Shown piece after piece: positions 41,502 to 62,214 of a stretch of DNA of 64,000 bases. Position numbers and translations under genes: made by a program. A model generated the notes under the pieces. That model was not told the DNA's origin. It ran no database searches and saw only the letters and a program-made list of their open reading frames with translations. Location: NCBI GenBank assembly GCA_900539035.1, contig UQAU01000002.1:20771-84770 (forward strand), written 5' to 3'. Origin of the DNA: an uncultured Collinsella sp. (lineage in GTDB: Bacteria; Actinomycetota; Coriobacteriia; Coriobacteriales; Coriobacteriaceae). The number at the start of each line of letters is the position of its first letter. Position 1 is the first letter of the stretch.

Positions 41502-41694
41502 AGACCTTTAGCAGCTCAGAGGCATTGTTCCTCTGGGCTGTTTTCTTTTATCTTGACAATGCAGCGAGGACTCCTGAGCGGAATATGAGCAGATTGCAAC
41601 GACCGCCAAGGCAAAACAGATGCCAATAAAACTAAAACCAGCTAAATAGAAGTGAAGAACCCGTAGAATCTTCCTCAGTGGAAAAGGCTATCAA

Positions 41695-44484: not shown

Positions 44485-44485
44485 C

Positions 44486-46316: not shown

Positions 46317-46336
46317 CGCGTGTCTGCAACGCGCCG

Positions 46337-47086
46337 CTACCGCGCGCCCTTCCGCCCGTTGCATTTCGAGCAGAGCACCTGCAGGTTGGATGGAACGGTC
46401 TTGCCGCCCTTCGCGACCGGCACGATATGGTCGACGTGCAGGCCCACGCCGTCCGGCATGTATTTCCCGCATATCTGGCAGGTGTAGTTGTCCCGGCGGG
46501 CGATCTGCTCGCGCAGCTGCTTCGTCATCAGCCTTCGCTGGTTCCTGGCGTGATAGTCCCTGAGCGTCGCCTCGTCGTTGATGGCGGCGAGGCGGATGCG
46601 GCGCTCGACGATCCACTCCCAGTTCACGTCAAGCTCGGAATCATCCATCGACACCTTGTAGGACGTCTTCACGTAGTTGGCCTGCTTGTACCTCGTCTGG
46701 TCGCGGCAGGTGATGAACCTAAAGGCCCTGTCATCGTCGACCGCCTCGGCGTACTGACGCTCGCGCCGGCTGCGGAGCCGGCAGGTTTTCAGATACTCTT
46801 CTTGCTCGTGCTTCCAGTTCTGGATGTATGCCCTATGGGCGACGATGGCGTCCCAACCGGCCGGGTCCATCAGGTGACGGTCGATGTAGTCCTCGATCCT
46901 CACGTTGCGCCTGCCAGACACATCGAAGCGGGCCACGTAGTAGGGATACCTAAAGGGGCTCGCCAGAATCCTGCGAACCAGGACCGCGATTGCACATACC
47001 AGGGCTATGGCCAGCACGCCGAGAACGAAATGGGGCGTCAGGTCGACTATATAGTGGTACCCGTCTATCTCATAGAGCTGAGTCAT
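46337..47086 (-). CDS. Membrane-anchored HNH endonuclease
   Basis: N-terminal TM (FVLGVLAIALVCAIAVLV) and C-terminal HNH motif CQICGKYMPDGVGLHVDHIVPVAKGGKTVPSNLQVLCSKCN. Start at MTQLYEID is preceded by GGAAGGAAG. Confidence 0.7.
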   Translation of the reverse strand: MTQLYEIDGYHYIVDLTPHFVLGVLAIALVCAIAVLVRRILASPFRYPYYVARFDVSGRRNVRIEDYIDRHLMDPAGWDAIVAHRAYIQNWKHEQEEYLKTCRLRSRRERQYAEAVDDDRAFRFITCRDQTRYKQANYVKTSYKVSMDDSELDVNWEWIVERRIRLAAINDEATLRDYHARNQRRLMTKQLREQIARRDNYTCQICGKYMPDGVGLHVDHIVPVAKGGKTVPSNLQVLCSKCNGRKGAR

Positions 47087-47246
47087 GGCATTCTTCCTTC
47101 CCCAAGGATGGCAAAATGATACCAAGACGCGGGTCTTCCGGATCGCGGGCGCTTTCCACGCGGTACACCCATGCCCCTCCGTCCGGACACCGCACACCGA
47201 ACCCCCACACCACGTTCGCTTTACAATCAAGAACATTCGTTCGACA

Positions 47247-47606
47247 ATGAAGCCCGTGAGATACAAACGGATGTTCGGGGGTACGCGCATGATCATGAAA
47301 AAGCACTCGCTTGCGGGAACCTGCGGCATACCCACCGATGCACAGCGCATCTACATCCCCGTGGACGCCAACGGCGCGGACGACCCCGACCACGGCCCGT
47401 CCGATCCCGTCACCATCCACTGGCCGGACGGCCGCAGTTGGAAGGTTGAGAGCATCTACGCCCGCCAGGAGTTCGGCCGCGCCATCTTCGGTAACCTCTG
47501 TGTGCGTTACGACGTCTGCATCGCGAGGCAGCGCAAAACGGTCTGGTGGGAGCACGGCGACTGGTTCGTCGAGCGCGGTGGCGGCATGGCGGTGACGCCC
47601 GAGTGA
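47247..47606 (+). CDS. Hypothetical small protein, paralog A (WPDGR-motif family)
   Basis: Shares ...ADG....PV.I.WPDGR.W.V..I... with the next ORF. Start uncertain (47247, 47289 or 47295). The ORF-track start overlaps the HNH gene on the opposite strand. Confidence 0.35.
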   Translation: MKPVRYKRMFGGTRMIMKKHSLAGTCGIPTDAQRIYIPVDANGADDPDHGPSDPVTIHWPDGRSWKVESIYARQEFGRAIFGNLCVRYDVCIARQRKTVWWEHGDWFVERGGGMAVTPE

Positions 47607-48004
47607 TGGGCCACACAAAGGACTTCGGCGGCGGCATCACCGTTCGCGCCAACGGCGACAAGCCCGGCAGACGCGTCCATAAGCAGTACGTAGACGTCTA
47701 CGCCCGCACTAACGCCGACGGAACGACGGTGCCTGTCCGCGTCTGCTGGCCGGACGGCCGCGGCTTCACGATCGACCAAATCATTCGAATAGACCCCTTC
47801 GGCGCGGTCATCCACGACGCGCAGACGGCGGTCTACACGGTGCGCTTCGGCGGCTGGACCACTCAGCTCATGCTGGAGCACTACCACAGGGAGGACCCCA
47901 TTCACGGGGCAGATGACCGCCTGCGATGGTGGGTCTGGGCGTTCGAGAACACCCGCTCGAAGAACGACGTTTCCGCACCGCCTGCCGACACGCGCGTCCG
48001 GTGA
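47606..48004 (+). CDS. Hypothetical small protein, paralog B (WPDGR-motif family)
   Basis: The ATG shares a base with the paralog A stop (TGATG). PVRVCWPDGRGFTIDQII... aligns to paralog A. Confidence 0.4.
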   Translation: MGHTKDFGGGITVRANGDKPGRRVHKQYVDVYARTNADGTTVPVRVCWPDGRGFTIDQIIRIDPFGAVIHDAQTAVYTVRFGGWTTQLMLEHYHREDPIHGADDRLRWWVWAFENTRSKNDVSAPPADTRVR

Positions 48005-48047
48005 ACGCGGGTTGGGTCGTCATGCGGAACGCAGAGGGTGACGTCGG

Positions 48048-48278
48048 CTAGAGCCAAGCTCCGGTCCACTCGCTCCGGTTCCTCGTCGCCGCGAGGAGCG
48101 CACCGCATGCCGCGAGCAGTTCGTAGTCCGCGATCCTGATCCCGACCGACATGGCCTCGGCGAGGACTTCAATCCCTCTGCCATAATCCTCGATCTCGGA
48201 GAATACCCCGATACCGTCCATGAGCCGCAGGGCGGCTTCGCTCGGCCCGTCCCCCGTCGTGACGTGACGTTCTTCCAT
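48048..48278 (-). CDS. Hypothetical small protein (76 aa), weak
   Basis: ORF only. No motif. Confidence 0.2.
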   Translation of the reverse strand: MEERHVTTGDGPSEAALRLMDGIGVFSEIEDYGRGIEVLAEAMSVGIRIADYELLAACGALLAATRNRSEWTGAWL

Positions 48279-48592
48279 GCCGAAACAATCCTCTCTATGC
48301 TAGAAAGGCGATGATAGCAGGTGCTGTCCGGGCCAGCGTAAACCGCGTTTTACGTTTTACGGCATCCGCTGACGGCGGCCACGGCTCCGTGGCCGGGTGA
48401 TGCCTCCGCTGCGCCCTGTAAAGGCCGCTCCATGAGGCCCCGCACAAACCTCCGCTCCGCTCCGGTTGGTGGAGGCCGTCATGGAGGACCTTGACAGGCC
48501 TTCGCTCCGGCATGGCTTTGCAGGGAGCAAAGCCGACGACGACGCGCGGCGTCGCCATTCGGCTTTGCCCGCAGGGGCGAGATGTTAGGGCC

Positions 48593-48919
48593 ATGCGCCC
48601 GGAGACGGAGGAAGACATGCAGCAGCTGATGACCGAGGAGATGGCCGGGAGGCTCCCGAGGCTCTACGAGCAGGACGGTGCCGGCGACCCCGTCGCGTAC
48701 GTCCACTATTTCTCGTGCTTGAGCGGGTGGGACTGGTGGCTCACCGAGTACGACCCCGCCACGGGCGAGGCATTCGGGCTCGTGCGCGGGTTCGAGACGG
48801 AGTGGGGCTATTTCAGCGTGCGGGAGATGGAGCGCCTCAACCGTGAGAAGGGGTTCGAGGCCATCGAGCGCGACGAGCATTTCGAGCCCGCGCCGGCGAG
48901 TAGGTTCGAGGGGAGATAG
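48593..48919 (+). CDS. DUF2958-like small protein, common on conjugative and mobilizable elements
   Basis: Motif YVHYFSCLSGWDWWLTEYDPATGEAFGLVRGFETEWGYFSVREMERL recalled as the DUF2958 signature (W.WY.TE.D......FG.V.G.E.E.GYFSL.EL). Confidence 0.45.
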   Translation: MRPETEEDMQQLMTEEMAGRLPRLYEQDGAGDPVAYVHYFSCLSGWDWWLTEYDPATGEAFGLVRGFETEWGYFSVREMERLNREKGFEAIERDEHFEPAPASRFEGR

Positions 48920-48923
48920 CGCG

Positions 48924-49526
48924 ATGGTCACGGTCGATTTCGATTTCATGGGCGAGGCGGTCCGCCTCGCCCTCGTGGCCGATGAGTACGTGGGCGGCGG
49001 CCTGGCCGTCCTCCTCCTCGACGCCACGGACCCGCGTTCCGAGGGCTACATGGCCGGGTGGGGCGTGCTCACGGCGAACGTGCCGTCGGCGGCCGAGTGG
49101 TGCCGCGGGCACGGCAACATCGCCATCGACGCCGCGGTGCCCGCGGCGCTCCTCGAGGCGCTCGAGGCCGCCGGCATGCTCCGCATGGCCGCCCGCTCGG
49201 CGGCGTCCGGGATGGCCCGCTACCCGCTTGCCACGGTCGTCGGGCACGCCCTCGCCGACATGGGCGGCCTGCCCGAGACCTTGGAGGAGGCCCTCGGCTC
49301 GACGGTCGTCGTCGAGTACGAGTCGGGCGGCGACGGCGGCGCGTTCGAGGTGGGGACCGCACCGGCGGGCTCGGCCGAGCTCGAGCGCCTCGTCGCCGCC
49401 GCGAGGTCCGAGGCCGACGCGCTGGCAGCCGCCGGCGGATGGGCGGCCGTCCGGGTCGGTTTCGGGGACGCCGAGACCATCGACTGCGAGGCGGGCCGAA
49501 CGGTCTACGCGACCGGGGCGGAATAG
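48924..49526 (+). CDS. Hypothetical acidic protein (possibly DUF4313-like) co-transcribed with the DUF2958 gene
   Basis: GGGAGA RBS and a 5-nt gap after the previous stop. No confident family. Confidence 0.4.
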   Translation: MVTVDFDFMGEAVRLALVADEYVGGGLAVLLLDATDPRSEGYMAGWGVLTANVPSAAEWCRGHGNIAIDAAVPAALLEALEAAGMLRMAARSAASGMARYPLATVVGHALADMGGLPETLEEALGSTVVVEYESGGDGGAFEVGTAPAGSAELERLVAAARSEADALAAAGGWAAVRVGFGDAETIDCEAGRTVYATGAE

Positions 49527-50229
49527 CCGCGGCCGCCACCCGCACGGGCATGCCGGCGACGGCGTGCCCGTGCGGCGTTTCCCGGGGATGGACCGCGCCA
49601 TCCCCGGACCCCTGCGCGCCAAAGGGCCTAGGCCCCTTGGGACCCGTGTCCGTGTGACGGGCATGACGGGGATGACGGCACGGCGGACACATGCCTTCGG
49701 GCGTCACCGTGTCCCGCTGGATCGGCCTTTCGGCCGATGCGTCCCCGCCGGGATGCGGGGACGCCCGCGCCGCGTTCCGCGCCGCTCTCGCTGCGGCTCC
49801 CTGGCAACGCTCCCCAGGGTCGCGTTTCGTGCGCCTCCGCTCACGCCGGCCCCGGACGGTGAACGGCTGCATTCGATGGCTCCCAGAGGTCGCCATCATT
49901 CCGCCGTGGTCACCGGCCGGGGCCTCTCGCCCCGGGTCGCCGTGCGTACGGGGGATGCTCCCCAGGGTCGCGTCCCCCTGCGCGCGGCTCGGCCGGGGCT
50001 CACCTCGACGCAGCCTCGTCGGACGGGGCCGACATGCGGTTGCCGGTCGATGCAAGATGTGTATCCGTGCGTACACGGCGTCTTTCGGCCGCCGCGCACA
50101 CACGGATATCTTGCCCTGCGGGGCGCGTCCCCCGAGCTTGCGGGACGCTTGTTGCGTCCCGGTCCCGGGAGACGGGAAGAGGGGCCGCGGCCCCTCTTCG
50201 AGATGTGCGCGCGGCGCGTCCTATACGTA

Positions 50230-51204
50230 TCACATCTCGTTTTCCCGGCCGTCGTCCATCGCCCGCTCCATCATGCGGTAGGTCGCCATGCCGATCCCGA
50301 GCGCGTGCTGTATGCCGCCCCTCGTGAAGCCGCGACCGAGCTTTCGCCCGCTGATCGCCGCTTTCCTGAGGGCGCGCCCGTGCGCGTCCCTTCGATCGTA
50401 TGTCGGTCGGTACTCGAAGACCAGGTCCCTTTCCTTGAGATTCCGGTCACGGCTGAGGCGCATATGAACACCCCTCCGCTCAAGCGACTCGTTGAGGGCG
50501 CGCATTTTGTTCGATGCGTCTGATGAGACGATCTCGCGGACGCTTTCGCGAACGACCCGGCGAACGTGGTCCTGGTCGGTTTCGAAGCCCGGGTCGGCCT
50601 TCGAGCCGATCTCGCGGGCCCGCTGCTCGCCCCTCGACTCCTGCCGGGCGTGGACGCGGCTGTTGCGCGTCCCGCGCTCAAGCTGGGAGAGCCCCCAGCG
50701 CCCGTCCATCTCGCGCATCCTCGCCGCGTGGAGGGTCCTCTGGCGGGACGCCCTGCCGTCGTTGAGGCGCTTTCCGGTCGAGAGGTCAGTCCGGTTGATG
50801 GCGATATGCACGGCGTAACGGTCGGTCCCGTCCCTCGAGTGCTCTAGGTGGAGTGCCCACGCCGCCTCCTGGTTCGGGTAGTAGCGCTCGACCCACTCGC
50901 GTGCGAACTCCATGCAGTCGCCCTCGGACATCCTTCCCCCGTTGACGTCGCACTCGTCGGGGTTGAACGCGATGATCTGGTGATAGCAGTAGGTGCATTT
51001 CGAGCCCTTTCGCCCGGGCTCGTTGTGCCCGTAGGCCGCGCGCGTGCGCTCCATCTCGCGGGACCAGTTCGCCGGGTCGCCGAGGTTCCGGGAGTCGAAG
51101 TCGAGCACGTCGTGTTTGCTGTTCGTGTTGTCCAGATAACCCGATAAGCTCTTCATATGCTGCGTGCCTGTGATCGCCACCTGCTTGATTGCGGTCATAT
51201 CCAT
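50230..51204 (-). CDS. Relaxase/mobilization nuclease (MobA/VirD2-like)
   Basis: ...CYHQIIAFNPDE...HLEHSRDGTDRYAVHIAINRTD (3-His motif), upstream Tyr-bearing region. Start at MDMTAIKQ. The ORF-track N-terminal 98 codons (Arg/Pro-rich) were discarded. Confidence 0.8.
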   Translation of the reverse strand: MDMTAIKQVAITGTQHMKSLSGYLDNTNSKHDVLDFDSRNLGDPANWSREMERTRAAYGHNEPGRKGSKCTYCYHQIIAFNPDECDVNGGRMSEGDCMEFAREWVERYYPNQEAAWALHLEHSRDGTDRYAVHIAINRTDLSTGKRLNDGRASRQRTLHAARMREMDGRWGLSQLERGTRNSRVHARQESRGEQRAREIGSKADPGFETDQDHVRRVVRESVREIVSSDASNKMRALNESLERRGVHMRLSRDRNLKERDLVFEYRPTYDRRDAHGRALRKAAISGRKLGRGFTRGGIQHALGIGMATYRMMERAMDDGRENEM

Positions 51205-51211
51205 CCACTTC

Positions 51212-53170
51212 CTATTCGTCCCAGGCCGCCCACTCGTCCATGAACGCCGCGTTGTCCTCGTCGGCCTTGGTGGGATCGTTCGGGGCGGTCTCTTCTTCAC
51301 CGGATGCGTCGCCATCGGCGTCGAACTCGGGGCACCACGGGGTGGGGGCTTCATATGCGTCGCCTTCTGCGGCGGCTCTCGCGCGGGCGTAGTACGCGGC
51401 CCGTTTCTCGCGCTCGGCCTCCTCGTCCCCGAGCCCGAAGAACGGGCCGGCGGGCGTCCTGTTGGCGTAGTCGAGCGGGAATTCGAAGACGCCCTCACGT
51501 CCGGGCTTCGAGTTCTCCCCGCCCTTGATCGCGATGAGGCCGTCGCGGATGGGGATGCGGTTCTGCCACTCCCATTCGTTTATCAGGGGAACGCCCGCCT
51601 CGTTGTAGCTCGTGCCAGATGAGGAGCGCCCTGCGCCTTTCTGGCTAGACGTTCCCATCGAGCGCACGGTCCGCTTTCCCGCGAGTGCCGTGAAGAACTT
51701 GAAGTCCTCTGGCTCGGAGAGAGACAGAGCGACCTTGATGCCGATGGAGCCGATCAGCTTGTCGCGACCGGCCCCGCCGTCGCCTGGGTCATTGTAGGCA
51801 TTCAATTCTTTGAGATTTTGAACGAAGATTTGCTCGCGTATTCCCATCGAACGTCCGAGCGTCGCGATGGCCGGCAGACACGCGACCTTGACGTTGAGGT
51901 TGCCGATCTCGTCGAGCACGAGCGCTGTCTCGTGTGGCATGCGGCCCCCGTTCCCCTTGCACGCCCGCTGCGCCACCTGCCACCACTGGTTCAGGAAGCA
52001 GGTGTAGACGACCCCGTACGGGTCTCCCTCGTCGAGCATCTCGATGTAGACCGCCGTCTTCCTCTCGATGAGGTCGCGAATGGAGACGCTGCTCTCGGAA
52101 GTCACGGCGCGGAGCGCTCCGTCCGAGAAGATGCTCAGTGCCTCCTTGAGGGTCGAGACGACGTTCTTGCCGGCCGTCGTCGCGCCGCCGTCACCGAGGA
52201 GGTCGGACGCCGGCGAGAACGCCGGGTGCGACGGCCCGAGCTCGCGGATGTAGTCCTTAAGCGGGGCCGAGGGGTCCTTCGGGTCGTCGCCGGCGGTCCC
52301 GCGCTCCACGAGCGCGGCGACGCTCGCGAGGTTCTTCTGCCTGCGGGGGATGTCGGCCGTGCAGACGACGAGGACGCAGGCGGCGAGCATGTTGCGCGCT
52401 GCCTTGGGGAAATACGTGTTCTTCTCCCCGCCGATTGGGATGAGGTCGACGGCAACCTGCCGGGCCGTCCTCACGGCCCCGTCAATGTCGCCCGCCTCGA
52501 CGGCGTCGGCGACAAGTCCGATGGGGTTGTACGAGCTGGCACCGGGATAGCCGGTCAGGTCGAGGACGATGGTCTCGTAGCCGAGCTTCCTCGCCTTGTC
52601 GGCGGTGAGCTCAAGGATCTCGGGCTTTCCGGTGGAGACGACGTTCCAACCGGCTGCCAGGAACATATGCATATCTTCCAGGACTTGGAATTGTGACTTA
52701 CCAGACCCCGTTTTTCCAATGCTGATCGCGTGCGGAACGGACGAGTCGAACCAGTATCCGCCCTTGGTCGCGCCGAGCACGAAACCCGCTCTGGCCGGCG
52801 CGCCGGACCCGTCCCAGAAATCGTTGCGGCGGTTGAGTTCCGCTGTGCCCCGGACGACGTGGGCGTCGCCGTAGATACCTTCGTCGACGTTCCGGTTGCG
52901 TTCGGCGTCCTTTGCGACCGTATAGCCGAGGAGAACGAGAAACAGGAGACAGAACGCTGCGAACATGAACGGAATGTGACCGAGCCATGCCCCGGAAAGC
53001 CAGAAGACCGACCACATGTCGAAACCGATGGCGTCGAGCCAGGCGACCCAATCGATGGGGAGCGACGAAGCGGCGCAAGCGATCACGGGTGCTATCAGGG
53101 GATAACACGCGACGGTAAGGACGGTGGCGAACGAAGCCGAGAGGACAGCGTTGAACTTAAGATTGCGCAC
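51212..53170 (-). CDS. Type IV coupling protein (TraG/VirD4/TraD family)
   Basis: N-terminal TMs, Walker A GKTGSGKS, TraG-like central and C-terminal regions. Confidence 0.85.
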   Translation of the reverse strand: MRNLKFNAVLSASFATVLTVACYPLIAPVIACAASSLPIDWVAWLDAIGFDMWSVFWLSGAWLGHIPFMFAAFCLLFLVLLGYTVAKDAERNRNVDEGIYGDAHVVRGTAELNRRNDFWDGSGAPARAGFVLGATKGGYWFDSSVPHAISIGKTGSGKSQFQVLEDMHMFLAAGWNVVSTGKPEILELTADKARKLGYETIVLDLTGYPGASSYNPIGLVADAVEAGDIDGAVRTARQVAVDLIPIGGEKNTYFPKAARNMLAACVLVVCTADIPRRQKNLASVAALVERGTAGDDPKDPSAPLKDYIRELGPSHPAFSPASDLLGDGGATTAGKNVVSTLKEALSIFSDGALRAVTSESSVSIRDLIERKTAVYIEMLDEGDPYGVVYTCFLNQWWQVAQRACKGNGGRMPHETALVLDEIGNLNVKVACLPAIATLGRSMGIREQIFVQNLKELNAYNDPGDGGAGRDKLIGSIGIKVALSLSEPEDFKFFTALAGKRTVRSMGTSSQKGAGRSSSGTSYNEAGVPLINEWEWQNRIPIRDGLIAIKGGENSKPGREGVFEFPLDYANRTPAGPFFGLGDEEAEREKRAAYYARARAAAEGDAYEAPTPWCPEFDADGDASGEEETAPNDPTKADEDNAAFMDEWAAWDE

Positions 53171-53181
53171 AGGATTTCCTC

Positions 53182-53529
53182 CTAGACGTTCCGGGCATCA
53201 GTCAGGAAGTCCGAGACGGCGTCGGCTGCGTTTCCGACCTTTATGAGTGCGGCATCGAGGAACGGGGCGATCCGACCGGGGTCGTGGGTGATATGGACCT
53301 CGCGCGTCAACTGGTTAAGGTTCGACGCAGCAAGTCTGAAATCTCGGTACAGGAGCTTCAGCGTCTCGGGGTCGGTGGCGATTATGGGTCGGTCGCCGTC
53401 GACGAGCGAGCGTCGGCGAAGGTACTCGCTCATGCTCAGGCCAGCCGCATCGGCACGCCGCGCGATGGCGGCGCGCTCCTGCGAGGTGACTCTGACGTAG
53501 ATGCGGCCCGACCTCTGCGGGCTACTCAT
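53182..53529 (-). CDS. MobC-like relaxosome accessory protein (ribbon-helix-helix)
   Basis: RIYVRVTSQERAAIARRADAAGLSMSEYLRRR. Start moved to MSSPQRSG. Confidence 0.6.
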   Translation of the reverse strand: MSSPQRSGRIYVRVTSQERAAIARRADAAGLSMSEYLRRRSLVDGDRPIIATDPETLKLLYRDFRLAASNLNQLTREVHITHDPGRIAPFLDAALIKVGNAADAVSDFLTDARNV

Positions 53530-53968
53530 TGCGCCCCGCCGCGCCAGTGGGAACGAACACATGGGACACGCCGACTCGGCGGTCGCCTCCCATGCTGTCG
53601 CAGAGCATGAAGGCGAACGCAAACGGGGTGTCGGCAAAGGGTGTGCGGGAACGGGCTTCGAACATGAGGGCCATGAGATCGAGATAGGCGCTTTCAAGGC
53701 GATCGTAGTCCCCGCGCGTCACGGGGATCCCGCGATAGGTGACGATGGGGAGGTCGGGCTCGTCGCAATAGTAGGCGAAGAGTGTGCCGGGGATCTCCTC
53801 CTGGACGATCGCATCGATCGAGGGGATATCGGGGTAGGCCGACGGTGCGAAAGGCCAGGCGAAGAAGGCATGCTTTCGCTTTTCGGCTGCTTCGGGGTTG
53901 AGCTCGATGGTGAACTTCGGGGCGATCTCGAATCGACCGTCCGACAGTTTCAGGGATTTGAATTCCAT
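53522..53968 (-). CDS. Hypothetical protein (148 aa) in the mobilization operon
   Basis: Overlaps the mobC start by 8 nt. Protein-like composition. Confidence 0.4.
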   Translation of the reverse strand: MEFKSLKLSDGRFEIAPKFTIELNPEAAEKRKHAFFAWPFAPSAYPDIPSIDAIVQEEIPGTLFAYYCDEPDLPIVTYRGIPVTRGDYDRLESAYLDLMALMFEARSRTPFADTPFAFAFMLCDSMGGDRRVGVSHVFVPTGAAGRNE

Positions 53969-54023
53969 AACAGGTCCTTTCGATGATGCGGCGGGGCCGG
54001 GTGTGGCTGGCCCCGCCGGTCGA

Positions 54024-55010
54024 TTAGTCGCGGGTGAGAATGTGTGCGAGGGTGATTAGCCGCGCTGTCGCGGTGCGGTGGAACCCGTACTCGACTCCTC
54101 GCTCGGCGAGGAATGCGCGGTGCTCGTTGAGCCGCTTCGCGAGGACGGCGGGCGTTGCATCGGTGAGGCTGGCGTCCTCGATAAGCTGCGTGGCGGTACC
54201 TTCCCAGGCGCCGGGCCGCGCAGCCATGAAGTCGAGGACGGTGAGCACGCATGCCGGAACCTCGCGCTCGCGCAGTTCCTCGCGGCTGGTCTGCTCGATG
54301 AGGTGCCAGCGGCAGTCGGTGAATGCGAGCTTGTATTCCGCTAGGTCGACATCGCGTCCCGTGACGGAGAGAGTCGCCTTTCCGTCGAACATGGCATCTT
54401 TGGCGAGCAGCAAGCACTCGTCTGCCGCCCCGAGTATGCCGTTCGAGCCGCTGATGGTGTTGAACACGTTGGCCTCATCACCCATCTTTCGCGTGTGATG
54501 CACCAACAGGACACAGAGACCGTGTTTGTCGGCGAAAGCCTTGAGCAGGCCAACGTCCTGATAGTCGGACGCGTAGACGCTGTCCCCTCCGCTTGCAACA
54601 CGTACTTTTTGGAGCGTGTCGATGATGATGAGTCTGGTGGATGGGTGGCAGGAGAGATATCGCTCCAACTGGAGGATGAGCCCATTGTTGAGCTTGTCTG
54701 CCATAATCGCGAACTGGAGGTCGTCGTTGGCGACGTCGACGATATGGAACAGGCGGTTCTGGATGCGCGCGTACGTGTCCTCAAGGCACAGATAGAGAAC
54801 GCCGGAACGTTCTGTGGCATGGTCGAGGAACGGCTGGCCGGTGCTAACGCTGACGCTGAGTCCCAGGCTGAACCAACTCTTTCCGACTTTAGGGGTGCCC
54901 GCGAGCACTACGAGGCCGGTGGGGATGAGCTCCTCGACGAGCCAGGTGACGCTTGCGAGTGGGCTGTCGAGCAGGTCCTGCGCGGAACGGACCTCAAGGT
55001 CGCCAGGCAT
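54024..55010 (-). CDS. RepA-like AAA_25 family ATPase (replicative helicase/primase-associated)
   Basis: VVLAGTPKVGKSWFSLGLSVSV (P-loop) ... LIIIDTLQK ... LVHHTRK. Start at MPGDLEV. Confidence 0.65.
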   Translation of the reverse strand: MPGDLEVRSAQDLLDSPLASVTWLVEELIPTGLVVLAGTPKVGKSWFSLGLSVSVSTGQPFLDHATERSGVLYLCLEDTYARIQNRLFHIVDVANDDLQFAIMADKLNNGLILQLERYLSCHPSTRLIIIDTLQKVRVASGGDSVYASDYQDVGLLKAFADKHGLCVLLVHHTRKMGDEANVFNTISGSNGILGAADECLLLAKDAMFDGKATLSVTGRDVDLAEYKLAFTDCRWHLIEQTSREELREREVPACVLTVLDFMAARPGAWEGTATQLIEDASLTDATPAVLAKRLNEHRAFLAERGVEYGFHRTATARLITLAHILTRD

Positions 55011-55011
55011 C

Positions 55012-55221
55012 CTATACCGCCTCCGCGCGGATGACGCGACAGCGGCCGCGATAGTCGGTGACGATCTCGACGCCGAGGGCTGTGCAGAGCGCGTCGATGC
55101 GGTCCGCCTGTTCGATAGCGAATCCGAGAATGTCCTCATCGGTAGGATTGTGTGGGAGACCGTGGGCCTCCAGCGTGCGCGCTACGCGCTCGGCGTGCGC
55201 AAAGTAGGCGGAATAGTCCAT
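55012..55221 (-). CDS. Hypothetical small protein (69 aa)
   Basis: Tightly packed upstream of the AAA_25 gene. Confidence 0.3.
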   Translation of the reverse strand: MDYSAYFAHAERVARTLEAHGLPHNPTDEDILGFAIEQADRIDALCTALGVEIVTDYRGRCRVIRAEAV

Positions 55222-55335
55222 TTGTGCTCCTTGTAGATATGGGCCGCATGGAGCATGTAATATGGACCATGCGGTTTATGTGCCGCGGACGGGTGCGTCT
55301 TCTTGGCGGGAGGGCACCCGTTTTTCTTTTTCAGG

Positions 55336-55533
55336 CTAGCCAACGCCGGCCATCTCCTTTCGGTCGTCGGGCTCTTTTAGCCCGAGCTCGCGGTAGAGCG
55401 CGGAGCGGGCGATGTACCACGTCTTTCCGAGCTTGCGAAACGGAAGCTCACCGGCCTTGGCGAGCTTTTGAGCCTTGGAATAACTCACATTCATAATCTC
55501 GCTTGCTTCAGCGAGAGACAGGAGCTTGTCCAT
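55336..55533 (-). CDS. xis: Excisionase / HTH_17-family DNA-binding protein
   Basis: LSLAEASEIMNVSYSKAQKLAKAGELPFRKLGKTWYIARSAL. Confidence 0.55.
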   Translation of the reverse strand: MDKLLSLAEASEIMNVSYSKAQKLAKAGELPFRKLGKTWYIARSALYRELGLKEPDDRKEMAGVG

Positions 55534-55572
55534 ATATACCTCCTCTCTTATCGTTAATTCCATTGTACACAC

Positions 55573-55684
55573 TTGACAAAGAGAAACAAAGAAAAATAAA
55601 AATCAAATTGAAATGAGATATAGATAAAGGCTAAAGTTGAAACTAACATCGCTATAAAGCTTTATTTAGAAAGTTGATTAAGTA
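55573..55684. promoter_or_regulatory. AT-rich divergent promoter region between xis (minus) and the zf-FCS gene (plus); contains TTGACA
   Basis: About 30% GC over 110 bp. CACTTGACAAAG at 55570-55581. Confidence 0.35.
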
Positions 55685-56917
55685 ATGGCTAGAAAAGTAT
55701 TCATCGCGAGGAACCGAAGCACCGGATTCCACTCCCTGGTCGAGGTGGTTCGTGGGGTTGAGGCGGCGGAGAAGTCGGCTCCAATGGACTTCGAACTTGC
55801 AGAGCGTCTTATGCGCTGGGGCACTCTCGACGAGCTCGTCACGGCCATTTCGGAGTCTGGCCCCCTCATCGACCGCAGCATCTATAAAGAGGAGAATAGG
55901 CGGTTGTCTATCGACGAGGCCATCGAGGTCGTGGAGGAGTCCGTCGGCGGCGAGCGTGGTTTCACGCGTTGTGACGAAGATTTCCTCTATCTCCAGCTGT
56001 GCCTTGAGGGGATGTCTACGACGGGCAGCGCTTCGTCACTCTATCCCTCTCAGGCCTCCATTGCTCGCGATCTCAATCGCCATGGGCTTATTGAGTCCAA
56101 CGGTCTTGACGAGTTGAAGAAATGGCGGGAAGAAGATCCCGACTGCGTCGTTGTGATTGAACCCTTGAGGGACGTCGTCCTATGCCGAAATCTCGGTTCG
56201 GTCCTGCTCAGGTTGATCGCAAACATCATGTCGGGGCATGAGGACGTCCTTGAGAAAAGCGGGTTCAAGCGTTTCGAAAAGAAACGTCGCTGGTGGATTA
56301 CTGGGGAGCTCAAGGACTCCTATTACGTCCTGCCATTCCAGCACAATTCCTCCTTCGATATGACTCTCAACTACTCGACCAAGTGGTTCAAGAACGTCTT
56401 TTCCTATATGGTCATTAATCCGCTTGAGACGCGCATCCTCGATCTTAGGCCGAGAAAGAGTAAGGTTCTTTTCGGATCGGTTCCCAACGCGGTTTTGATA
56501 ACCGCGCAGATAAAGACCGGCGAGGGCGCACCGTTTTTCGATATCGGCTGGAAGCCGGAGGTCGAGAAGACCCAGCTGTATCTCGGTGTCGATGACGGGG
56601 GTGCCCAGAGAGACGAGGCCATTGTCTTTGTGGAGTCCGTTGCCAAAATGCTGGCCGGGCTGACGACGAAGGACGGCGATCAACTTGGGTGGTCTGTAGG
56701 CGGGCCTTCGATCTTCGATGATGTGCCGGTGCCCAGATACCATTTCCACTCGACGGCGGCGGCGATGTTCGGGGCTATCCTCTACCGATACGGCTGTGTC
56801 CCCACGACGTGCAAAAATTGCGGAAACGGCATTTTGGTCAAAACCAGGGGGAAGAGGCGCGAGTTCTGTTCCCCGTCGTGCAGGACGCAGTATTCGAATC
56901 GAAAGGCGGGGCTCTAG
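55685..56917 (+). CDS. Hypothetical protein (410 aa) with a C-terminal zf-FCS/MYM-like zinc ribbon (C-x2-C-x13-FCSPSC)
   Basis: C-terminus CKNCGNGILVKTRGKRREFCSPSCRTQYSNRK. The N-terminal 380 aa have no recognised family. Confidence 0.55.
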   Translation: MARKVFIARNRSTGFHSLVEVVRGVEAAEKSAPMDFELAERLMRWGTLDELVTAISESGPLIDRSIYKEENRRLSIDEAIEVVEESVGGERGFTRCDEDFLYLQLCLEGMSTTGSASSLYPSQASIARDLNRHGLIESNGLDELKKWREEDPDCVVVIEPLRDVVLCRNLGSVLLRLIANIMSGHEDVLEKSGFKRFEKKRRWWITGELKDSYYVLPFQHNSSFDMTLNYSTKWFKNVFSYMVINPLETRILDLRPRKSKVLFGSVPNAVLITAQIKTGEGAPFFDIGWKPEVEKTQLYLGVDDGGAQRDEAIVFVESVAKMLAGLTTKDGDQLGWSVGGPSIFDDVPVPRYHFHSTAAAMFGAILYRYGCVPTTCKNCGNGILVKTRGKRREFCSPSCRTQYSNRKAGL

Positions 56918-57127
56918 ATGAATCCGTTTATCATCGCGGGCGCGGTGTGGCTGGCGGTCGCCATCGCGACCTTGCTGTATCAAGTGGTCCGCAGGAAGCT
57001 CGGGGATCGGGGCTCGATGGTCGAGGCGTCTTGGCGCGACTTGGCTATGTCATCGATCGGTTTCGGGCTTCCGTTCGCGGCGCTCGCGCTTGCCGCCGTC
57101 GGCGTGGCAACAATCTTTCTTCACTAG
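56918..57127 (+). CDS. Small two-TM membrane protein (69 aa)
   Basis: The ATG overlaps the preceding TAG (TAGATG). Two hydrophobic helices. Confidence 0.4.
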   Translation: MNPFIIAGAVWLAVAIATLLYQVVRRKLGDRGSMVEASWRDLAMSSIGFGLPFAALALAAVGVATIFLH

Positions 57128-57139
57128 AGGCGCGGTAGC

Positions 57140-58504
57140 ATGGCGACGGTGCCCCGCAACAAGGGTAGTTACGCCCCTAGGACGGCTGGTAGCTCTTGGC
57201 AGGTAAAGTACCCGCTCGGCTGGAATGAGCGCAAGAAGCGTTACGACGAATATCGTGAAGAGGTCGCTTCGGAGGCCGAGGCCATCGCGCTGATCAAAGC
57301 CATCAACGACTACGTTTATCACGGGGGCCTTCCGCAAGACGTACCCGAGTGGAGACGCAGGGCAAAAGGACATTCCGAGGGTGACGTCCTAACGCTCGAT
57401 GGATTCGCCATGTCCTATATCGCGATGCGGGAGAGGCGGCGAAAAGTCCAGGAGAGGACCATCGAAAGCAACCGCGAGGCCTGGGCAAGACTCCGGCCGT
57501 ACCTCGGCGATTTGCCTCTGAGGCGGGTGACGCCCTTCGTCATCGATGAGGCATATGCCTGTATGGGGAGTCCGGGGGACGATAACCTTGCCGGCAGGGT
57601 CTACTCCGGAACGACGATTGAGAAAAGTCATGCGTTTCTGCGGCAGCTGCTCAAGGACGCCGTCGAGCGGGGTTACATCGACAAGAACCCCTGCGATTCG
57701 ATTGACGCTCCCAAAAGGGATACCAAGGAGAAGGTAGCACTCACTTTATTTCAAGCCCAGGCGCTATTTAACTACATAACGAGTCGCCCCCTGGAGGCAC
57801 ATGCCATTGGCGTGCTGCTTGCGCTGAACTGCGGGCTTAGGCTTTCCGAGATGCTCGCGTTGACCTGGCAAGATTATGAAGGCGGCGTGCTGTCTGTAAC
57901 TAAAGCGCTGAACAAAGAGAAGCAGACGTACAAGTCGACGAAGAACGAAGACAACAGGAGGGTCCCTGTCCCGATGCCGCTCATATCGGTTCTCGATGAG
58001 TGGCAGAAGACCCAAAGGCGCATTTACTCGGACAACCTCGGCCTTCGGTGGAGCGAAGACGCACCCATTGTGAACAGCAGAAACGCAAAGCACATCCTTC
58101 AGCGGTCTTTCACGCGTTGGTTCGATTCGGCAAGGCTCGAGTATCCGATACCCGACGACTTCGAGTTTCATGGGTTCAGGCATACATACGTGACCTTGTT
58201 GAGTCGCGACTGTGGAGTGGACCGGCGAACCGCGAAGAGCATGAGCGGTCACAAGAACGACCAGGCCTTCGATATCTACACTCATACAAACGATGAGTGG
58301 CAGCGAAGGGCGGCTAACGAGCTCGGTGATATCTTGCAGCCTAATGACGGCGCTCGAAAATGCTACAACTGCGCTTACTGGGGCGTATCTCCTCTAGACG
58401 CCGATCGTGGTGCCTGCTGGAACAACCCCGCCGGGCTAATCGAAGCAAAAGCGGGCGACTCGTGTGGCAAGGGCCTGTTCATCGCCAAAACCGCGAAAGC
58501 GTGA
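57140..58504 (+). CDS. int: Tyrosine-type site-specific integrase with a Cys-rich C-terminal tail
   Basis: Catalytic region ...LRLSE...HGFRHTYVTLL...DIYTH (R-H-R-Y) plus a SAM-like N-domain. Tail CYNCAYWGVSPLDADRGACWNNPAGLIEAKAGDSCGKG. Confidence 0.9.
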   Translation: MATVPRNKGSYAPRTAGSSWQVKYPLGWNERKKRYDEYREEVASEAEAIALIKAINDYVYHGGLPQDVPEWRRRAKGHSEGDVLTLDGFAMSYIAMRERRRKVQERTIESNREAWARLRPYLGDLPLRRVTPFVIDEAYACMGSPGDDNLAGRVYSGTTIEKSHAFLRQLLKDAVERGYIDKNPCDSIDAPKRDTKEKVALTLFQAQALFNYITSRPLEAHAIGVLLALNCGLRLSEMLALTWQDYEGGVLSVTKALNKEKQTYKSTKNEDNRRVPVPMPLISVLDEWQKTQRRIYSDNLGLRWSEDAPIVNSRNAKHILQRSFTRWFDSARLEYPIPDDFEFHGFRHTYVTLLSRDCGVDRRTAKSMSGHKNDQAFDIYTHTNDEWQRRAANELGDILQPNDGARKCYNCAYWGVSPLDADRGACWNNPAGLIEAKAGDSCGKGLFIAKTAKA

Positions 58505-58559
58505 CGACAGCGGGCATATCCCATTGAAGCTGTCATTTCCGTCATAGGTGTCATTTGCT

Positions 58560-58740
58560 GACTTGAGTATTGGTTGTTTGTTAATCAGCAGGGGTGATAT
58601 TAAATATGTTCAAATATGGCGGCGGAATCTGATCAGAATATGCTCAGAATGATGACATGAGCAGATAATGAGCAGATAAAAATGCTCAATAATAAGTGCA
58701 TGATACAGCTATTTACCTGCGTAAACGTATAATAGGTTCT
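58560..58740. promoter_or_regulatory. AT-rich attP-derived arm with direct repeats (GAGCAGATAATGAGCAGATAAAA, GCTCAGAAT), candidate integrase arm-type sites
   Basis: Repeats read directly. ATGAGCAGAT also occurs near attL at about 41586. Confidence 0.4.
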
Positions 58741-58762
58741 ATAGAGAAAGAGCCGCCCCGCC

Positions 58763-58810
58763 CTCATAACCCGGAGGTCGTAGGTTCAAATCCTGCCCCC
58801 GCGACCAAGA
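58763..58810 (+). repeat. attR: 48-bp copy of the tRNA-Met 3' end
   Basis: Exact match to 41457-41504. The preceding sequence is not a tRNA 5' half. Confidence 0.85.
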
Positions 58811-58817
58811 ACTTGCA

Positions 58818-58846
58818 GCTCGTCGGCCTAGCCGGCGAGCTTTTTT
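58818..58846 (+). terminator. Rho-independent terminator (GCTCGTCGGCCTAGCCGGCGAGC + T6), presumably the native tRNA-Met terminator
   Basis: Perfect hairpin plus T-run immediately after attR. Confidence 0.6.
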
Positions 58847-58896: not shown

Positions 58897-59194
58897 TCTC
58901 GATCTGTAACATCTAGACCCGATTTAGGCGGCTGGGTGTTACAGATCGAGATATACCGGTGGGTTGGGTCGTGTTTGTCTAAATCTGTAACACGAGGGAC
59001 GGATTTTGCCGAGTTGTTGTTATAGATTGAGATTTTCTAGCAGGCGGGTTTGGTTTGTCTCGATCTGTAACAGGTAGGGGTCAAAAGTGGGCCCAGCTGT
59101 TACAGATCGAGATTGTTGAGGATGGGTCGAGAGGAATATCTTGATCTGTAACAGTAAGACCCAGTTTTGCCGCGTAACTGTTACAGATTGAGAC
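58897..59194. repeat. Array of four roughly 55-bp hairpin units with an 81-bp period: 15-bp arm TCTCGATCTGTAACA, 25-27-nt unique loop, arm TGTTACAGATCGAGA
   Basis: Arms at 58897, 58937, 58978, 59018, 59058, 59099, 59139 and 59180. The loops are all different and the linkers are also unique. Confidence 0.7.
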
Positions 59195-59335
59195 AAACCG
59201 ACGGGCCGCCCCGTCCCATCCACCAGCCGGCACCTGATATTCGCCGATTTCCGTTGCGCTGTTGTATTCCCATGCCATATCCTCTAGACAACTACGCGGC
59301 ATCATCGCCGCCGCGCCTACAAGAGAGGAATATCC

Positions 59336-61366
59336 ATGACCGCACCTGCATCCAAGCTGCTCCAGCCCATTACGGTTGGCCCCCTTGAGCTCAAGAACCG
59401 CATTATGTTTCCGCCGCTGACCACCGGCTACGAGGAGCGTGACGGTTCCATCGGCGAGCGCAGCCTGGCTTTTTACGAGCGCTTGGCCCGTGGCGGCGTG
59501 AGCTACATCGTCATCGGTGACGTTGCCCCCGTCATGACCGCAAGCCCCACGCCCAAGCTGGCAACCGACGCCCAGATCCCCACGTTTAAGGCCCTGGCCG
59601 ACACCGTCCACAAGCACGGCGCCAAGGTCGCGCTGCAGCTGTTCCACCCCGAGTACGACGTGCCCGGCGTCGGCCGCATGGTCATGGGATCCATGGCCGC
59701 CGCCAAGGCCGCGCAGGAGGCCAAGGCCGCCGGCGACGAGGAGACCTTTGCCGCCAAGATGGCCGAGTCCAACGAGATCCGCAACCAGGCCTACGCCAAG
59801 CTGCACCACGACATGCAGCACTTTGTGAACGAGGCGAGTGTGGAGCAGCTCACCCAGATCAAGGAGGCTATCGCCGCCTCGGCCGCTCGCGCGCAGCAGG
59901 CCGGGATCGATGCCATCGAGGTCCACGGCGACCGCCTGGTAGGTTCGCTGTGCTCGGCCATCCTCAACCAGCGCACCGACGAGTACGGCGGCTCGTTCGA
60001 GAACCGCGTTCGCTACGCGCTGGAGGTCGTCGCTGCCATTAAGGAAGCCGCGCCGCAGCTGATGGTGGAGTACAAGCTCCCCGTGATCATGGAGAACCCC
60101 GACGGCACGCCGCGCGGCAAGGGCGGCTTGCTGCCCGACGAGGCCTGCGAGTTTGCCAAGCTGCTCGAGGGCGCGGGCATCGACATGATCCAGGTTGCAC
60201 AGGCCAACCACACCGGCAACATGGGCGACACCATTCCGCCCATGGGCGCCATGCCCTACAACTGGACGCTACCGGTGGCCGAGCGCGTCAAGGCCCTTGT
60301 CTCCGTGCCGGTGGCAACCGTCGGCCGTGTTGTCTCGGTCGAGGCCGGCGAGAAGATTCTGGAAGACGGCGCGGCCGACATCATCGCCTATGGGCGCTCG
60401 CTCATGTGCGACCCCGACATTGCGCTGAAGGCCGCCACGGGTGAGCCCATCCGCGAGTGCCTCAACTGTAACAAGGGCTGCGTCGACGCGATTCAAAACC
60501 GCAAGTACATCTCGTGCGTGCTCAACGCCGAGAACGGTGACGAGGCGACCATCGCTATCAGGCCGGGCGAGGGCGACAAGAAGATCGCCGTGGTGGGCGG
60601 CGGCATCGCCGGCCTGGAGGCCGCACGCGTGGCGGCCAAGCGCGGCTACGACGTGACCATCTACGAGGCGAGCGATCATCTGGGCGGCCAGATTGTGCTG
60701 GCGGCTGCGCCTCCGCGCAAGGACGAGATCATGCGCTCGGTCGAGTACTACGAGAAGATTCTGCCTGGCCTGGGCGTGAAGGTTGAGCTCAGCCACGTCG
60801 CTACGGCAGAGGACCTCAACGCCGCCGACGCCGCGATTGTGGCCGTGGGCGCGCACGACGTGGTCATCCCCGTTCCGGGTGCCGACTCGGACAAGGTCGT
60901 CTCGAGCTGGGACGTGCTGGCCGGCAAGGTGGAGCTCAGTGGGCGCGTTGCCGTCATTGGCGGTGGCCTGGTGGGCACCGAGACTGCCGAGTACCTGCTG
61001 CAGCACGGCTGTGAGGTGGCGATCGTCGAGATGCTCGACAAGATTGCCGCGGGCGAGTCCGAGACCATTCTGCCGCTGATTATGAGCGACTTTGCAGAGC
61101 ACAACGTGGAGCAGCATGTTAAGACCCGCCTGACCGCCATTACCGACGAAGGCGTGGAGGCTGTTCGCACCACCGAGGACGGCGCCGAGGAGCCGGTGAA
61201 GATCGCCTGCGATTACGTGGTGATGGCCGTGGGCTCCAAGGCCAATGCGTTTGACCTGGATGGCGTGACGGTGCCCGTGGCCTGCGTGGGCGACTGCTCG
61301 GGCGAGCGCACCGCCGACATTGCGAGCGCCATCCGCACGGCGTATCACGCGGCCAACGAGCTGTAG
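59336..61366 (+). CDS. Old-Yellow-Enzyme-family FMN oxidoreductase fused to an FAD/NAD(P)-binding domain (2,4-dienoyl-CoA / enoate reductase-like)
   Basis: OYE TIM-barrel N-domain, 4Fe-4S Cys cluster (CLNCNKGCVD) and GGGIAGLEAARVAAKRGYDVTIYEA Rossmann motif. Confidence 0.8.
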   Translation: MTAPASKLLQPITVGPLELKNRIMFPPLTTGYEERDGSIGERSLAFYERLARGGVSYIVIGDVAPVMTASPTPKLATDAQIPTFKALADTVHKHGAKVALQLFHPEYDVPGVGRMVMGSMAAAKAAQEAKAAGDEETFAAKMAESNEIRNQAYAKLHHDMQHFVNEASVEQLTQIKEAIAASAARAQQAGIDAIEVHGDRLVGSLCSAILNQRTDEYGGSFENRVRYALEVVAAIKEAAPQLMVEYKLPVIMENPDGTPRGKGGLLPDEACEFAKLLEGAGIDMIQVAQANHTGNMGDTIPPMGAMPYNWTLPVAERVKALVSVPVATVGRVVSVEAGEKILEDGAADIIAYGRSLMCDPDIALKAATGEPIRECLNCNKGCVDAIQNRKYISCVLNAENGDEATIAIRPGEGDKKIAVVGGGIAGLEAARVAAKRGYDVTIYEASDHLGGQIVLAAAPPRKDEIMRSVEYYEKILPGLGVKVELSHVATAEDLNAADAAIVAVGAHDVVIPVPGADSDKVVSSWDVLAGKVELSGRVAVIGGGLVGTETAEYLLQHGCEVAIVEMLDKIAAGESETILPLIMSDFAEHNVEQHVKTRLTAITDEGVEAVRTTEDGAEEPVKIACDYVVMAVGSKANAFDLDGVTVPVACVGDCSGERTADIASAIRTAYHAANEL

Positions 61367-61480: not shown

Positions 61481-61815
61481 TTGCTCCGGTGGATGGCAAT
61501 GCGCGGTAATCATGAGGAGTGAGGACGTCTGCTGCCTTGCAGATCACTCAAAATTATTGGGGGAGGGGTTAATAACTATATCCTCTATACCAAAGGACAT
61601 AAAGAGATGCCAATTTTGTTGACAAGCGAATGACGATTAGCTGCGAGTCAGCTACCAGCGTAAATAATCGATAAAGAAATGTCGTAATTTGGTGCCAAAT
61701 GCCCAGATAACGCCGCGTCTATTTTAATTAACTGCTTTGAGCAAACAGTAAAATGCTACTATCTAACTTGCACGTAAGAAAGCAGATTAACGGTTAAGGC
61801 TAAGAAGTGGCAGGT

Positions 61816-62214
61816 ATGTCGGAAGCAACAAGGACTCGCACGCATGCGCCTGAGGTCAGGCAGCGCGCCGTCGAGATCCTCCAAGAGGGGGTCGGTCATC
61901 GCGCCCTCGCCGCGGAGCTTGGCATTCCCCAGGCCACGGCTCGTCAGTGGGCCCGCGCGTATGCCGTGGGCGGTGCCGACGCCGTTCTCAACGCCGGTTC
62001 GCATCATCACGCCTATTCATACGAAGTTAAGCTCGCCGTGGTCAAGGACCGCTTGGAAAACGGCTTGACGGTTCGCGAGGCCATGATCAAGCACAAGATT
62101 CCCAGCGAGTCTTCGGTCAAGGCTTGGTGCCGTCAGTACCGCGAGAGCGGTGAGTCCGCACTGGTGGTCGATAAGCCGCGCGGTCGCAAGCCGCGCGTTA
62201 AAAAGGCGGAATAG
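61816..62214 (+). CDS. Helix-turn-helix protein resembling IS3-family transposase OrfA; solitary, no OrfB follows
   Basis: RQRAVEILQEGVGHRALAAELGIPQATARQWARAY... and a second HTH-like half. Preceded by a 250-bp AT-rich region. Confidence 0.4.
   Translation: MSEATRTRTHAPEVRQRAVEILQEGVGHRALAAELGIPQATARQWARAYAVGGADAVLNAGSHHHAYSYEVKLAVVKDRLENGLTVREAMIKHKIPSESSVKAWCRQYRESGESALVVDKPRGRKPRVKKAE

Follow-up and report, generated by a model that had tools for sequence, protein, structure and literature searches.

The window analyzed here is a 64,000-nt stretch of Collinsella sp. DNA (contig UQAU01000002.1). It contains a 17.3-kb integrated element bounded by a 48-nt direct repeat, one copy of which lies in the 3' end of a tRNA-Met gene, whereas the other forms attR. 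This element resembles an integrative mobilizable or conjugative element and encodes a tyrosine integrase, a relaxase, a TraG-like coupling protein, a NikA-like protein, and an AAA_25 protein. Just inside its attR end are two tandem repeats with an 11-nt period, GAATATGATCA (2.7 copies) and ATGAGCAGATA (2.1 copies), which could be arm-type sites for the integrase or an excisionase. Past attR come the original terminator of the tRNA and, starting 87 nt beyond the 48-nt repeat, a regular array of short inverted repeats, which is followed 142 nt later by the gene of an OYE-family reductase (Table 1). A sequence-only reading of the window, which had drawn attention to this array, had placed it correctly between the displaced tRNA terminator and the reductase gene.

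The array consists of eight copies of a 15-nt arm, TCTCGATCTGTAACA, in strictly alternating orientation. Four of these copies match it exactly, and the others deviate at one position (two copies) or at two (two copies). When the 64-kb window was scanned with up to three mismatches, the same eight matches were found, compared with 0.82 expected by chance, and there was no further copy elsewhere in it. This confirms the four hairpins with alternating 15-bp arms described in the sequence-only reading. That reading was also right about the constancy of the lengths, but its ranges (25–27 nt for loops and 24–27 nt for linkers) were slightly too wide. Indeed, all four loops are exactly 25 nt long, the three linkers measure 26, 25, and 26 nt, and successive arm starts are 40, 41, 40, 40, 40, 41, and 40 bp apart. 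The loops of units 1, 2, and 4 and the reverse complement of the loop of unit 3 have GRCCC-nn-TTTT-GCCG in common, and unit 3 is an inverted copy relative to the other three (inverted matches of 81 and 62 nt, 73–82%). As assessed by folding of both strands, which had been proposed as a check, the predicted structures are far more stable than those of shuffled sequences (z = -10.7 as RNA and -9.7 as DNA).

Table 1. Features of the window around the array. Positions are those of the 64,000-nt window; mismatches are counted against TCTCGATCTGTAACA.
Feature	Positions	Strand	Remarks
tRNA-Met	41425-41501		
48-nt direct repeat, first copy	41457-41504		3' end of tRNA-Met
Integrated element	41457-58810		17.3 kb; also encodes relaxase, TraG-like coupling protein, NikA-like protein, AAA_25 protein
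Tyrosine integrase	57140-58504		carried by the element
Tandem repeats GAATATGATCA and ATGAGCAGATA	58625-58679		just inside attR end
48-nt direct repeat, second copy	58763-58810		attR
tRNA terminator	58817-58841		between attR and array
Array	58897-59193		eight arms, four units
Unit 1	58897-58951		loop 58912-58936, 25 nt, T-rich center on + strand; both arms exact
Arm 1	58897-58911	+	0 mismatches
Arm 2	58937-58951	-	0 mismatches
Linker 1	58952-58977		26 nt; W-rich ends, G+C-rich center
Unit 2	58978-59032		loop 58993-59017; both arms 2 mismatches
Arm 3	58978-58992	+	2 mismatches
Arm 4	59018-59032	-	2 mismatches
Linker 2	59033-59057		25 nt
Unit 3	59058-59112		loop 59073-59097, A-rich center on + strand; both arms exact
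Arm 5	59058-59072	+	0 mismatches
Arm 6	59098-59112	-	0 mismatches
Linker 3	59113-59138		26 nt
12-nt repeat GAGAGGAATATC, first copy	59129-59140		linker 3 into unit 4
Unit 4	59139-59193		loop 59154-59178; both arms 1 mismatch
Arm 7	59139-59153	+	1 mismatch
Arm 8	59179-59193	-	1 mismatch
Small hairpin GACGGGCCGCCCCGTC	59200-59215		G+C-rich; adjoins last arm
12-nt repeat GAGAGGAATATC, second copy	59323-59334		overlaps ribosome-binding region and start of OYE gene
OYE-family reductase gene	59336-61366		142 nt after array
135-aa ORF	61807-62214	+	downstream of OYE gene

Two contigs without the 17.3-kb element (L002 and L004) encode an identical reductase and have, after tRNA-Met and the terminator, an eight-arm array that is the same at every base. 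This comparison with the empty site, which the sequence-only reading had recommended, shows that the array is host-borne, i.e. it belongs to the chromosome and not to the mobile element, and that its proximity to attR is coincidental. The short distance to attR had suggested that the array might be part of the attachment machinery of the element, in the form of integrase/excisionase arm-type sites or iterons. Considering that the array is identical where the element is absent, and that the same repeat family occurs at dozens of loci with no integrase nearby, the likelihood of this is negligible.

In sister species, the orthologous locus has six or eight arms. The six-arm version, found in several of them, corresponds to the exact absence of unit 3 and linker 3 (81 bp), with breakpoints within directly repeated arms, which suggests that whole 80–81-bp units are gained or lost by arm-to-arm recombination. 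At the orthologous locus of one MAG (L085, 2072-2219), the array is cut within loop 1 and followed by two GGACACACATTNTGTCC palindromes at the contig end, probably another repeat or the end of a mobile element that broke the assembly.

A scan of species-representative genomes with the pattern ATCTGTAACA-N22-28-TGTTACAGATY identified at least 120 matching stretches, almost all labeled Collinsella. These contain at least 146 arrays of 2–16 arms, and clustering of the flanks resolved at least 35 distinct genomic contexts, each in up to 17 genomes. The geometry seen in the window is shared by the family. Among the matches listed, the spacing from a plus to a minus arm is 40 bp in 362 of 365 cases and that from a minus to a plus arm is 40 or 41 bp in 233 of 240, so that plus and minus arms alternate at 40/41-bp steps in 595 of 605 neighboring pairs. 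Loops are 25 nt long in 99% of cases and linkers are 25–26 nt long (same matches). Because arrays start with a plus arm and end with a minus arm (136 of the 143 listed), the module centered on the loop is the unit.

To describe the distribution of arrays over a long contiguous sequence, we examined the whole of record NZ_OY725717.1 (C. aerofaciens TSDC17.2-1.1 "plasmid 6", 899,693 bp, circular; L139-L156). This record carries recA, ftsK, rho, rpoB/C, most ribosomal protein operons, groEL, and secA/Y and has a monotonic GC skew; it is plainly a segment of chromosome mislabeled as a plasmid. It contains 13 arrays with 31 hairpins and 62 arms in 0.9 Mb. Since these arrays are unevenly placed, with none before 400 kb and all 13 in the 480 kb that follow, the family is a clumped multi-locus one at roughly 14 arrays per Mb. 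Five arrays lie within 20 kb (402.7-421.3 kb) and three within 10 kb (751-761 kb), the latter separating paralogous lac PTS/lacG modules. If the density in these 0.9 Mb is applied to 2.4 Mb, which is the length of one complete Collinsella contig, a genome would have roughly 80 hairpins (160 arms), the copy number criterion for REP sequences being >100 per genome. The hairpin pattern was also found in twelve IMG/VR viral contigs (L125-L136), in about half of them within 1 kb of the contig end. They have the appearance of host sequence flanking predicted Collinsella prophages, not of phage DNA. Two of them (L126 and L130) match on one strand only and with a shorter gap, and are probably unrelated.

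The anatomy of the unit was determined from 324 distinct units among the matches listed. Each is a 55-bp module, composed of a 15-nt arm, a 25-bp center, and an inverted arm, with the consensus G-TCTCRATCTGTAACA-nn-TAG-(G+C-rich)-nTTTT-(G+C-rich)-CTA-nn-TGTTACAGATYGAGA-C. The arm reads R-TCTC-R-ATCTGTAACA, with R at positions 0 and 5 and 97–100% conservation at positions 6–15, and reaches ~24 nt when WWW is added on its outer flank and nn-TAG on its inner flank. The linkers are W-rich at their ends and G+C-rich and unconserved in the center. A TAG..TTTT..CTA skeleton is common to loops across loci. Between contexts, identity is 92% for arms and 48% for loops, compared with 25% for shuffled or random loops. 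The loops are thus diverged homologs with a shared skeleton and not the unique segments of a variable library, as they had first been described. The only asymmetry of the unit is its central tract, an A- or T-tract that is present in 84% of loops and found on either strand (168 versus 124). Neighboring units are oriented nearly at random (113 same, 90 opposite).

When orthologous arrays of different species were compared, the number of differences per site was 0.028 for arms, 0.122 for loops, and 0.163 for linkers. In the same genome pairs, the corresponding values were 0.138 for the 4-fold sites of flanking genes and 0.083 for flanking intergenic DNA. Arms therefore evolve ~5 times more slowly than 4-fold sites, whereas loops and linkers drift roughly neutrally. 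Their lengths behave differently. At the indel-to-substitution ratio of the flanking DNA (0.104), ~31% of loops would be expected to keep their length, but 99% do. These findings show that the arm sequence and the 40/41-bp spacing are under purifying selection, with loops and linkers drifting almost neutrally. The sequence-only reading had considered that the array might turn out to be one of a generic dispersed repeat family with no loop-length constraint: it does belong to a multi-locus repeat family, but the constraint is real and strong. Loop identity is the same within an array (0.496) as between loci (0.478), and orthologous loops always have the same orientation (118 same, 0 flipped), which indicates that the arrays are old and stable, and are neither recent duplications nor switches. 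An invertible switch and a recent tandem duplication were rejected on these two grounds, and with the latter the possibility, also raised at the outset, that the loops are decayed tandem duplicates.

We found no evidence that the hairpin is selected. At the variable stem pair 5/51, we counted 100 G-C, 78 A-T, 76 A-C, and 68 G-T combinations, and the variable stem pairs (0/56, 4/52, and 5/51) vary independently (mutual information ≤0.01); the invariant pairs carry no information for or against a structure. A covariation test on 90 units detected no excess, with 84.4% paired cells versus 85.8% after shuffling and a score of 0.094 versus 0.110. Similarly, there is no strand bias of G·U pairs, which are about as frequent as A·C mismatches, also when units are oriented by the sense strand of the upstream gene (85 versus 70, p = 0.26). 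The apparent extension of the stem, between positions 16–20 and 36–40, is often unpaired and shows no covariation. Loops do fold about 1.5–2.3 kcal/mol better than shuffled loops, a slight advantage that is explained by the TAG/CTA skeleton. Partner arms thus evolve independently, and they are complementary because two independently conserved copies of one site stand inverted. A selected RNA or single-stranded DNA structure was rejected, because pair counts, mutual information, the comparison of G·U with A·C, and shuffles lend it no support beyond the inverted arrangement itself. By the same token, the multi-hairpin structured ncRNA that had been among the initial alternatives finds no support in covariation. 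It is unlikely that the arms evolve in concert through short-patch conversion.

All 146 listed arrays lie between called genes, and all 13 arrays of NZ_OY725717.1 lie between CDSs. Among the matches listed, the median distance is 76 nt from 3' ends of genes and 149 nt from 5' ends, and arrays start 20–140 nt after stop codons (44–114 nt in NZ_OY725717.1). In 32 contexts, the flanking gene pair is convergent in about 14, tandem in 10, and divergent in 8; the corresponding numbers for NZ_OY725717.1 are 5, 5, and 3. The neighbors are varied housekeeping genes, including those for Nramp, glutamate synthase, MurT/GatD, a Ser/Thr kinase-like protein, lac PTS modules, and glgP. About half of the arrays downstream of a gene are preceded by a terminator-like hairpin and about half are not. 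In one case, 21 nt separate the end of the array from a start codon with a Shine-Dalgarno sequence (GGAGG) of its own, and this array must hence lie in a 5' UTR. Some arrays must therefore be transcribed, so that a reader acting at the level of RNA or single strands is possible. A promoter scan revealed no sigma-70-like sites in or around the array of the window, and a promoter role was rejected for this reason.

The reading that we favor, with a probability of roughly 0.55, is that these are Collinsella-specific, BIME-like interspersed intergenic arrays whose arms are putative recognition sites, phased and sequence-specific, that a protein most likely reads on duplex DNA. What points to phased sites, rather than to folded RNA or spacers, is the combination of independent arms, strict spacing on both sides, and a central A/T tract that is indifferent to strand. 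Indeed, the occurrence of this tract on either strand and the near-random orientation of units fit a feature read at the duplex level. More generally, a selective signature in which motif and spacing are constrained, but the intervening sequence and the pairing of the arms are not, would suggest a sequence-specific reader. Each ~24-bp arm would be an individual recognition site, most likely read by a candidate protein on double-stranded DNA, and the fixed 40-bp phasing would bring neighboring bound copies into contact, head-to-head over the loop and tail-to-tail over the linker. Such interactions would build a regular nucleoprotein array, which could affect the structure or topology of the chromosome locally or insulate neighboring genes transcriptionally, termination between genes being another possible role. 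Of the alternatives originally listed, tandem binding sites for a dimeric protein or a stem-loop satellite would fit best, protein-binding sites being the best-supported mechanism with moderate confidence. Two caveats apply to phased recognition sites: the 40.25-bp repeat is not a whole number of 10.5-bp turns and fits only overwound or wrapped DNA (~10.06 bp per turn), and the units are predicted to be very stable as single strands. A more specific version, which is possible but doubtful, is that the arms are operator-like sites for a putative Collinsella-specific factor that would form an array with an 80-bp period, possibly wrapped, at a few dozen intergenic sites. The arrays would then be cis-regulatory or architectural elements of the host and not selfish DNA, and would be part of a system dedicated to structuring or insulating the chromosome, a kind that is not described from bacteria.

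BIMEs, the REP-built elements of Enterobacteria, Xanthomonas, and Pseudomonas, are extragenic, consist of regularly spaced repeats in alternating orientation, and have been reported to bind proteins such as gyrase and IHF (PMC2817692, PMC3333891). The Collinsella arrays resemble them in being extragenic, in occurring at many loci, and in having alternating regular repeats, short linkers, and a copy number that varies per locus; the protein binding reported for BIMEs is a precedent for a role at the DNA level. A REP sequence is a 20–40-nt imperfect palindrome with a GT(A/G)G head, in which pairing is kept by complementary mutations, and which is tied to a RAYT gene (PMC2817692, PMC3333891). In contrast, the 15-nt Collinsella arm is not palindromic (there is no dyad beyond GATC or TCGA), the ends of units have no GTAG/GTGG head, pairing of the arms is not maintained by complementary mutations, and the copy number appears to be lower (~30 hairpins per 0.9 Mb). 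REPINs are REP doublets that form hairpins and whose behavior is that of populations of replicating sequences, with a single-copy RAYT as the cognate gene (PMC3116915, PMC3337134). The Collinsella units are similar in that two inverted short conserved copies flank a spacer of lower conservation and can fold into a long hairpin, in occurring singly or in regular clusters, and in being vertically inherited within a lineage. They differ from REPINs in that units of the same locus are as diverged as those of different loci, orthologous positions are stable, arms are independent, and no cognate transposase was detected in 1.08 Mb centered on arrays.

These likenesses raise the alternative that the units are REPIN/REP-like non-autonomous mobile hairpins, copied as single-stranded DNA by a dedicated transposase (RAYT-type Y1 or other) recognizing the arms. 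Inverted-repeat units that lie outside genes, at many loci, in arrays, and in either orientation speak for this alternative, as do the local clusters (5 in 20 kb and 3 in 10 kb), which local hopping would give, and an AbiEi/DUF559-like gene that has arrays on both sides in nine genomes. We nevertheless consider it unlikely. The stem shows none of the compensatory evolution reported for REP palindromes (PMC2817692), the arm has neither palindrome nor head, units of one array are no more alike than units of different loci, orthologous sites keep their arrays even as the loops drift neutrally, and no single-unit insertion polymorphism with target duplications was seen. In addition, phmmer searches with E. 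coli RayT (E ≤ 10) and a Collinsella IS200 TnpA (E ≤ 1e-3) identified no homolog in 1.08 Mb centered on arrays, although a divergent RAYT could escape them. The only Y1 gene seen near arrays is that of an ordinary IS200, beside a lone arm and with different end hairpins, and an association with RAYT/IS200 was set aside as unlikely from the sequence near arrays. A MITE would show target-site duplications, insertion polymorphism, and terminal inverted repeats like those of a parent IS. No isolated arm pairs around a transposase were found in the same 1.08 Mb or in the 0.9 Mb of NZ_OY725717.1, in which IS21, IS256, IS3, IS30, IS110, and IS200 copies are not bounded by arms. It is quite unlikely, too, that the units are transcribed cis-acting RNA hairpins, serving as 3'-UTR stabilizers, bidirectional terminators, or RNase III-type processing sites. 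This would account for the very stable predicted folds, for arrays that start shortly after stop codons, for the over-representation of convergent gene pairs (~14 of 32 contexts and 5 of 13 arrays), and for arrays that have no preceding terminator or, in one case, lie in a 5' UTR. However, the stem displays no covariation and no excess of G·U on the sense strand, A·C mismatches being as common; either strand may carry the A-rich or T-rich central tract; and the length of linkers is as tightly constrained as that of loops. A stabilizer or terminator would not need near-perfect conservation of the arm sequence, and intrinsic terminators have a short G+C-rich stem, a 3–8-nt loop, and a U-tract, unlike the 25-nt loops found here. 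Moreover, a terminator scan of the window array found none inside it, this array lies downstream of the strong tRNA terminator, and other arrays are located between divergent promoters. No Rfam model reaches its gathering score, including Collinsella-1 (RF01700; PMC2864571), a multi-hairpin intergenic motif of the same genus; at E ≤ 10, there are weak matches far below gathering, mostly to miRNA-precursor hairpins.

As for the likeness to guide or spacer arrays noted in the sequence-only reading, the 25-nt loops and linkers would have to be acquired sequences displayed on a constant stem. The arrays do share with CRISPR constant repeats, variable segments of fixed length, and a regular period. 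However, CRISPR repeats are direct, their spacers are unrelated, and turnover occurs at one end, whereas the Collinsella repeats are inverted, the segments between them have a positional consensus (the 48% identity across loci) and are stably inherited, and units change in the interior of arrays by arm recombination rather than by addition at one end. Orthologous loops differ by point substitutions only, slowly and at about the synonymous rate, with no turnover or inversion of segments. The suggested search for matches of loops to mobile elements was also negative: neither loops nor linkers have better-than-chance matches elsewhere in the window, the integrated element included, the phage database contains no match to the array, and the only match of the array in the plasmid database is the mislabeled chromosome NZ_OY725717.1. 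A spacer library is thus very improbable, and the original verdict that this is not a CRISPR holds. In the NIMEs of Neisseria, variable RS segments are bounded by conserved dRS3 inverted repeats, dRS3 being a 20-bp self-palindrome that is a phage or recombinase target and RS segments measuring 50–150 bp with variable length. The Collinsella arrays are comparable in that they, too, are intergenic and consist of less conserved segments between short repeats of high conservation.

We found no description of an interspersed repeat family for Collinsella in the literature searched. This previously undescribed, genus-wide family is best filed with BIME/REPIN-type elements; membership in the REP/RAYT family fails on the features tested, since there is no palindrome or head and pairing is not maintained. 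Collinsella ranks among the most prevalent human-gut Actinomycetota. As loci with a variable number of repeats, the arrays can be used for strain typing; they can also mislead CRISPR finders and hairpin/ncRNA finders, and they adjoin integration hot spots without belonging to mobile elements.

Several minor observations concern genes and short sequences near arrays. The AbiEi/DUF559-like gene mentioned above encodes ~358 aa (L139, 12152-13228, minus strand; L023, 904-2040, minus strand) and is itself 87–91% conserved in the nine genomes; of the arrays on its two sides, the upstream one ends 21 nt before its start codon. Its product has a weak match to DUF559, with no match of note in Pfam, NCBIfam, or PDB, and only a 35%-identical paralog (L029, 1873-2820) matches AbiEi, at 5.5e-9. 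It is possibly a candidate DNA-binding or nuclease-like partner of the repeats, or else a chance association. As a cognate enzyme it was rejected, because one case among >35 contexts is too few. The gene is absent from the window. The IS200/IS605 copy (L139, 22700-23450), which encodes a TnpA of 152 aa and has its own CCACCC...GGGTGG end hairpins, stands directly after a lone plus arm between Nramp and flavin-reductase genes, where other genomes have a complete array; it probably inserted into the array or replaced part of it.

In the window, the terminator scan identified only the tRNA terminator and the small G+C-rich hairpin adjoining the last arm, which has a terminator-like score on the minus strand at a spot where no minus-strand gene terminates. 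The 12-nt sequence GAGAGGAATATC, which runs from linker 3 into unit 4, is repeated exactly over the ribosome-binding region and start of the OYE gene; a rough estimate of the chance of such a match in a region like this is a few per cent, i.e. borderline. Finally, the 135-aa ORF downstream of the OYE gene matches only transposase-type helix-turn-helix motifs (HTH_23, HTH_28, and others) and is kept in four of four related contigs as a stand-alone predicted DNA-binding domain.
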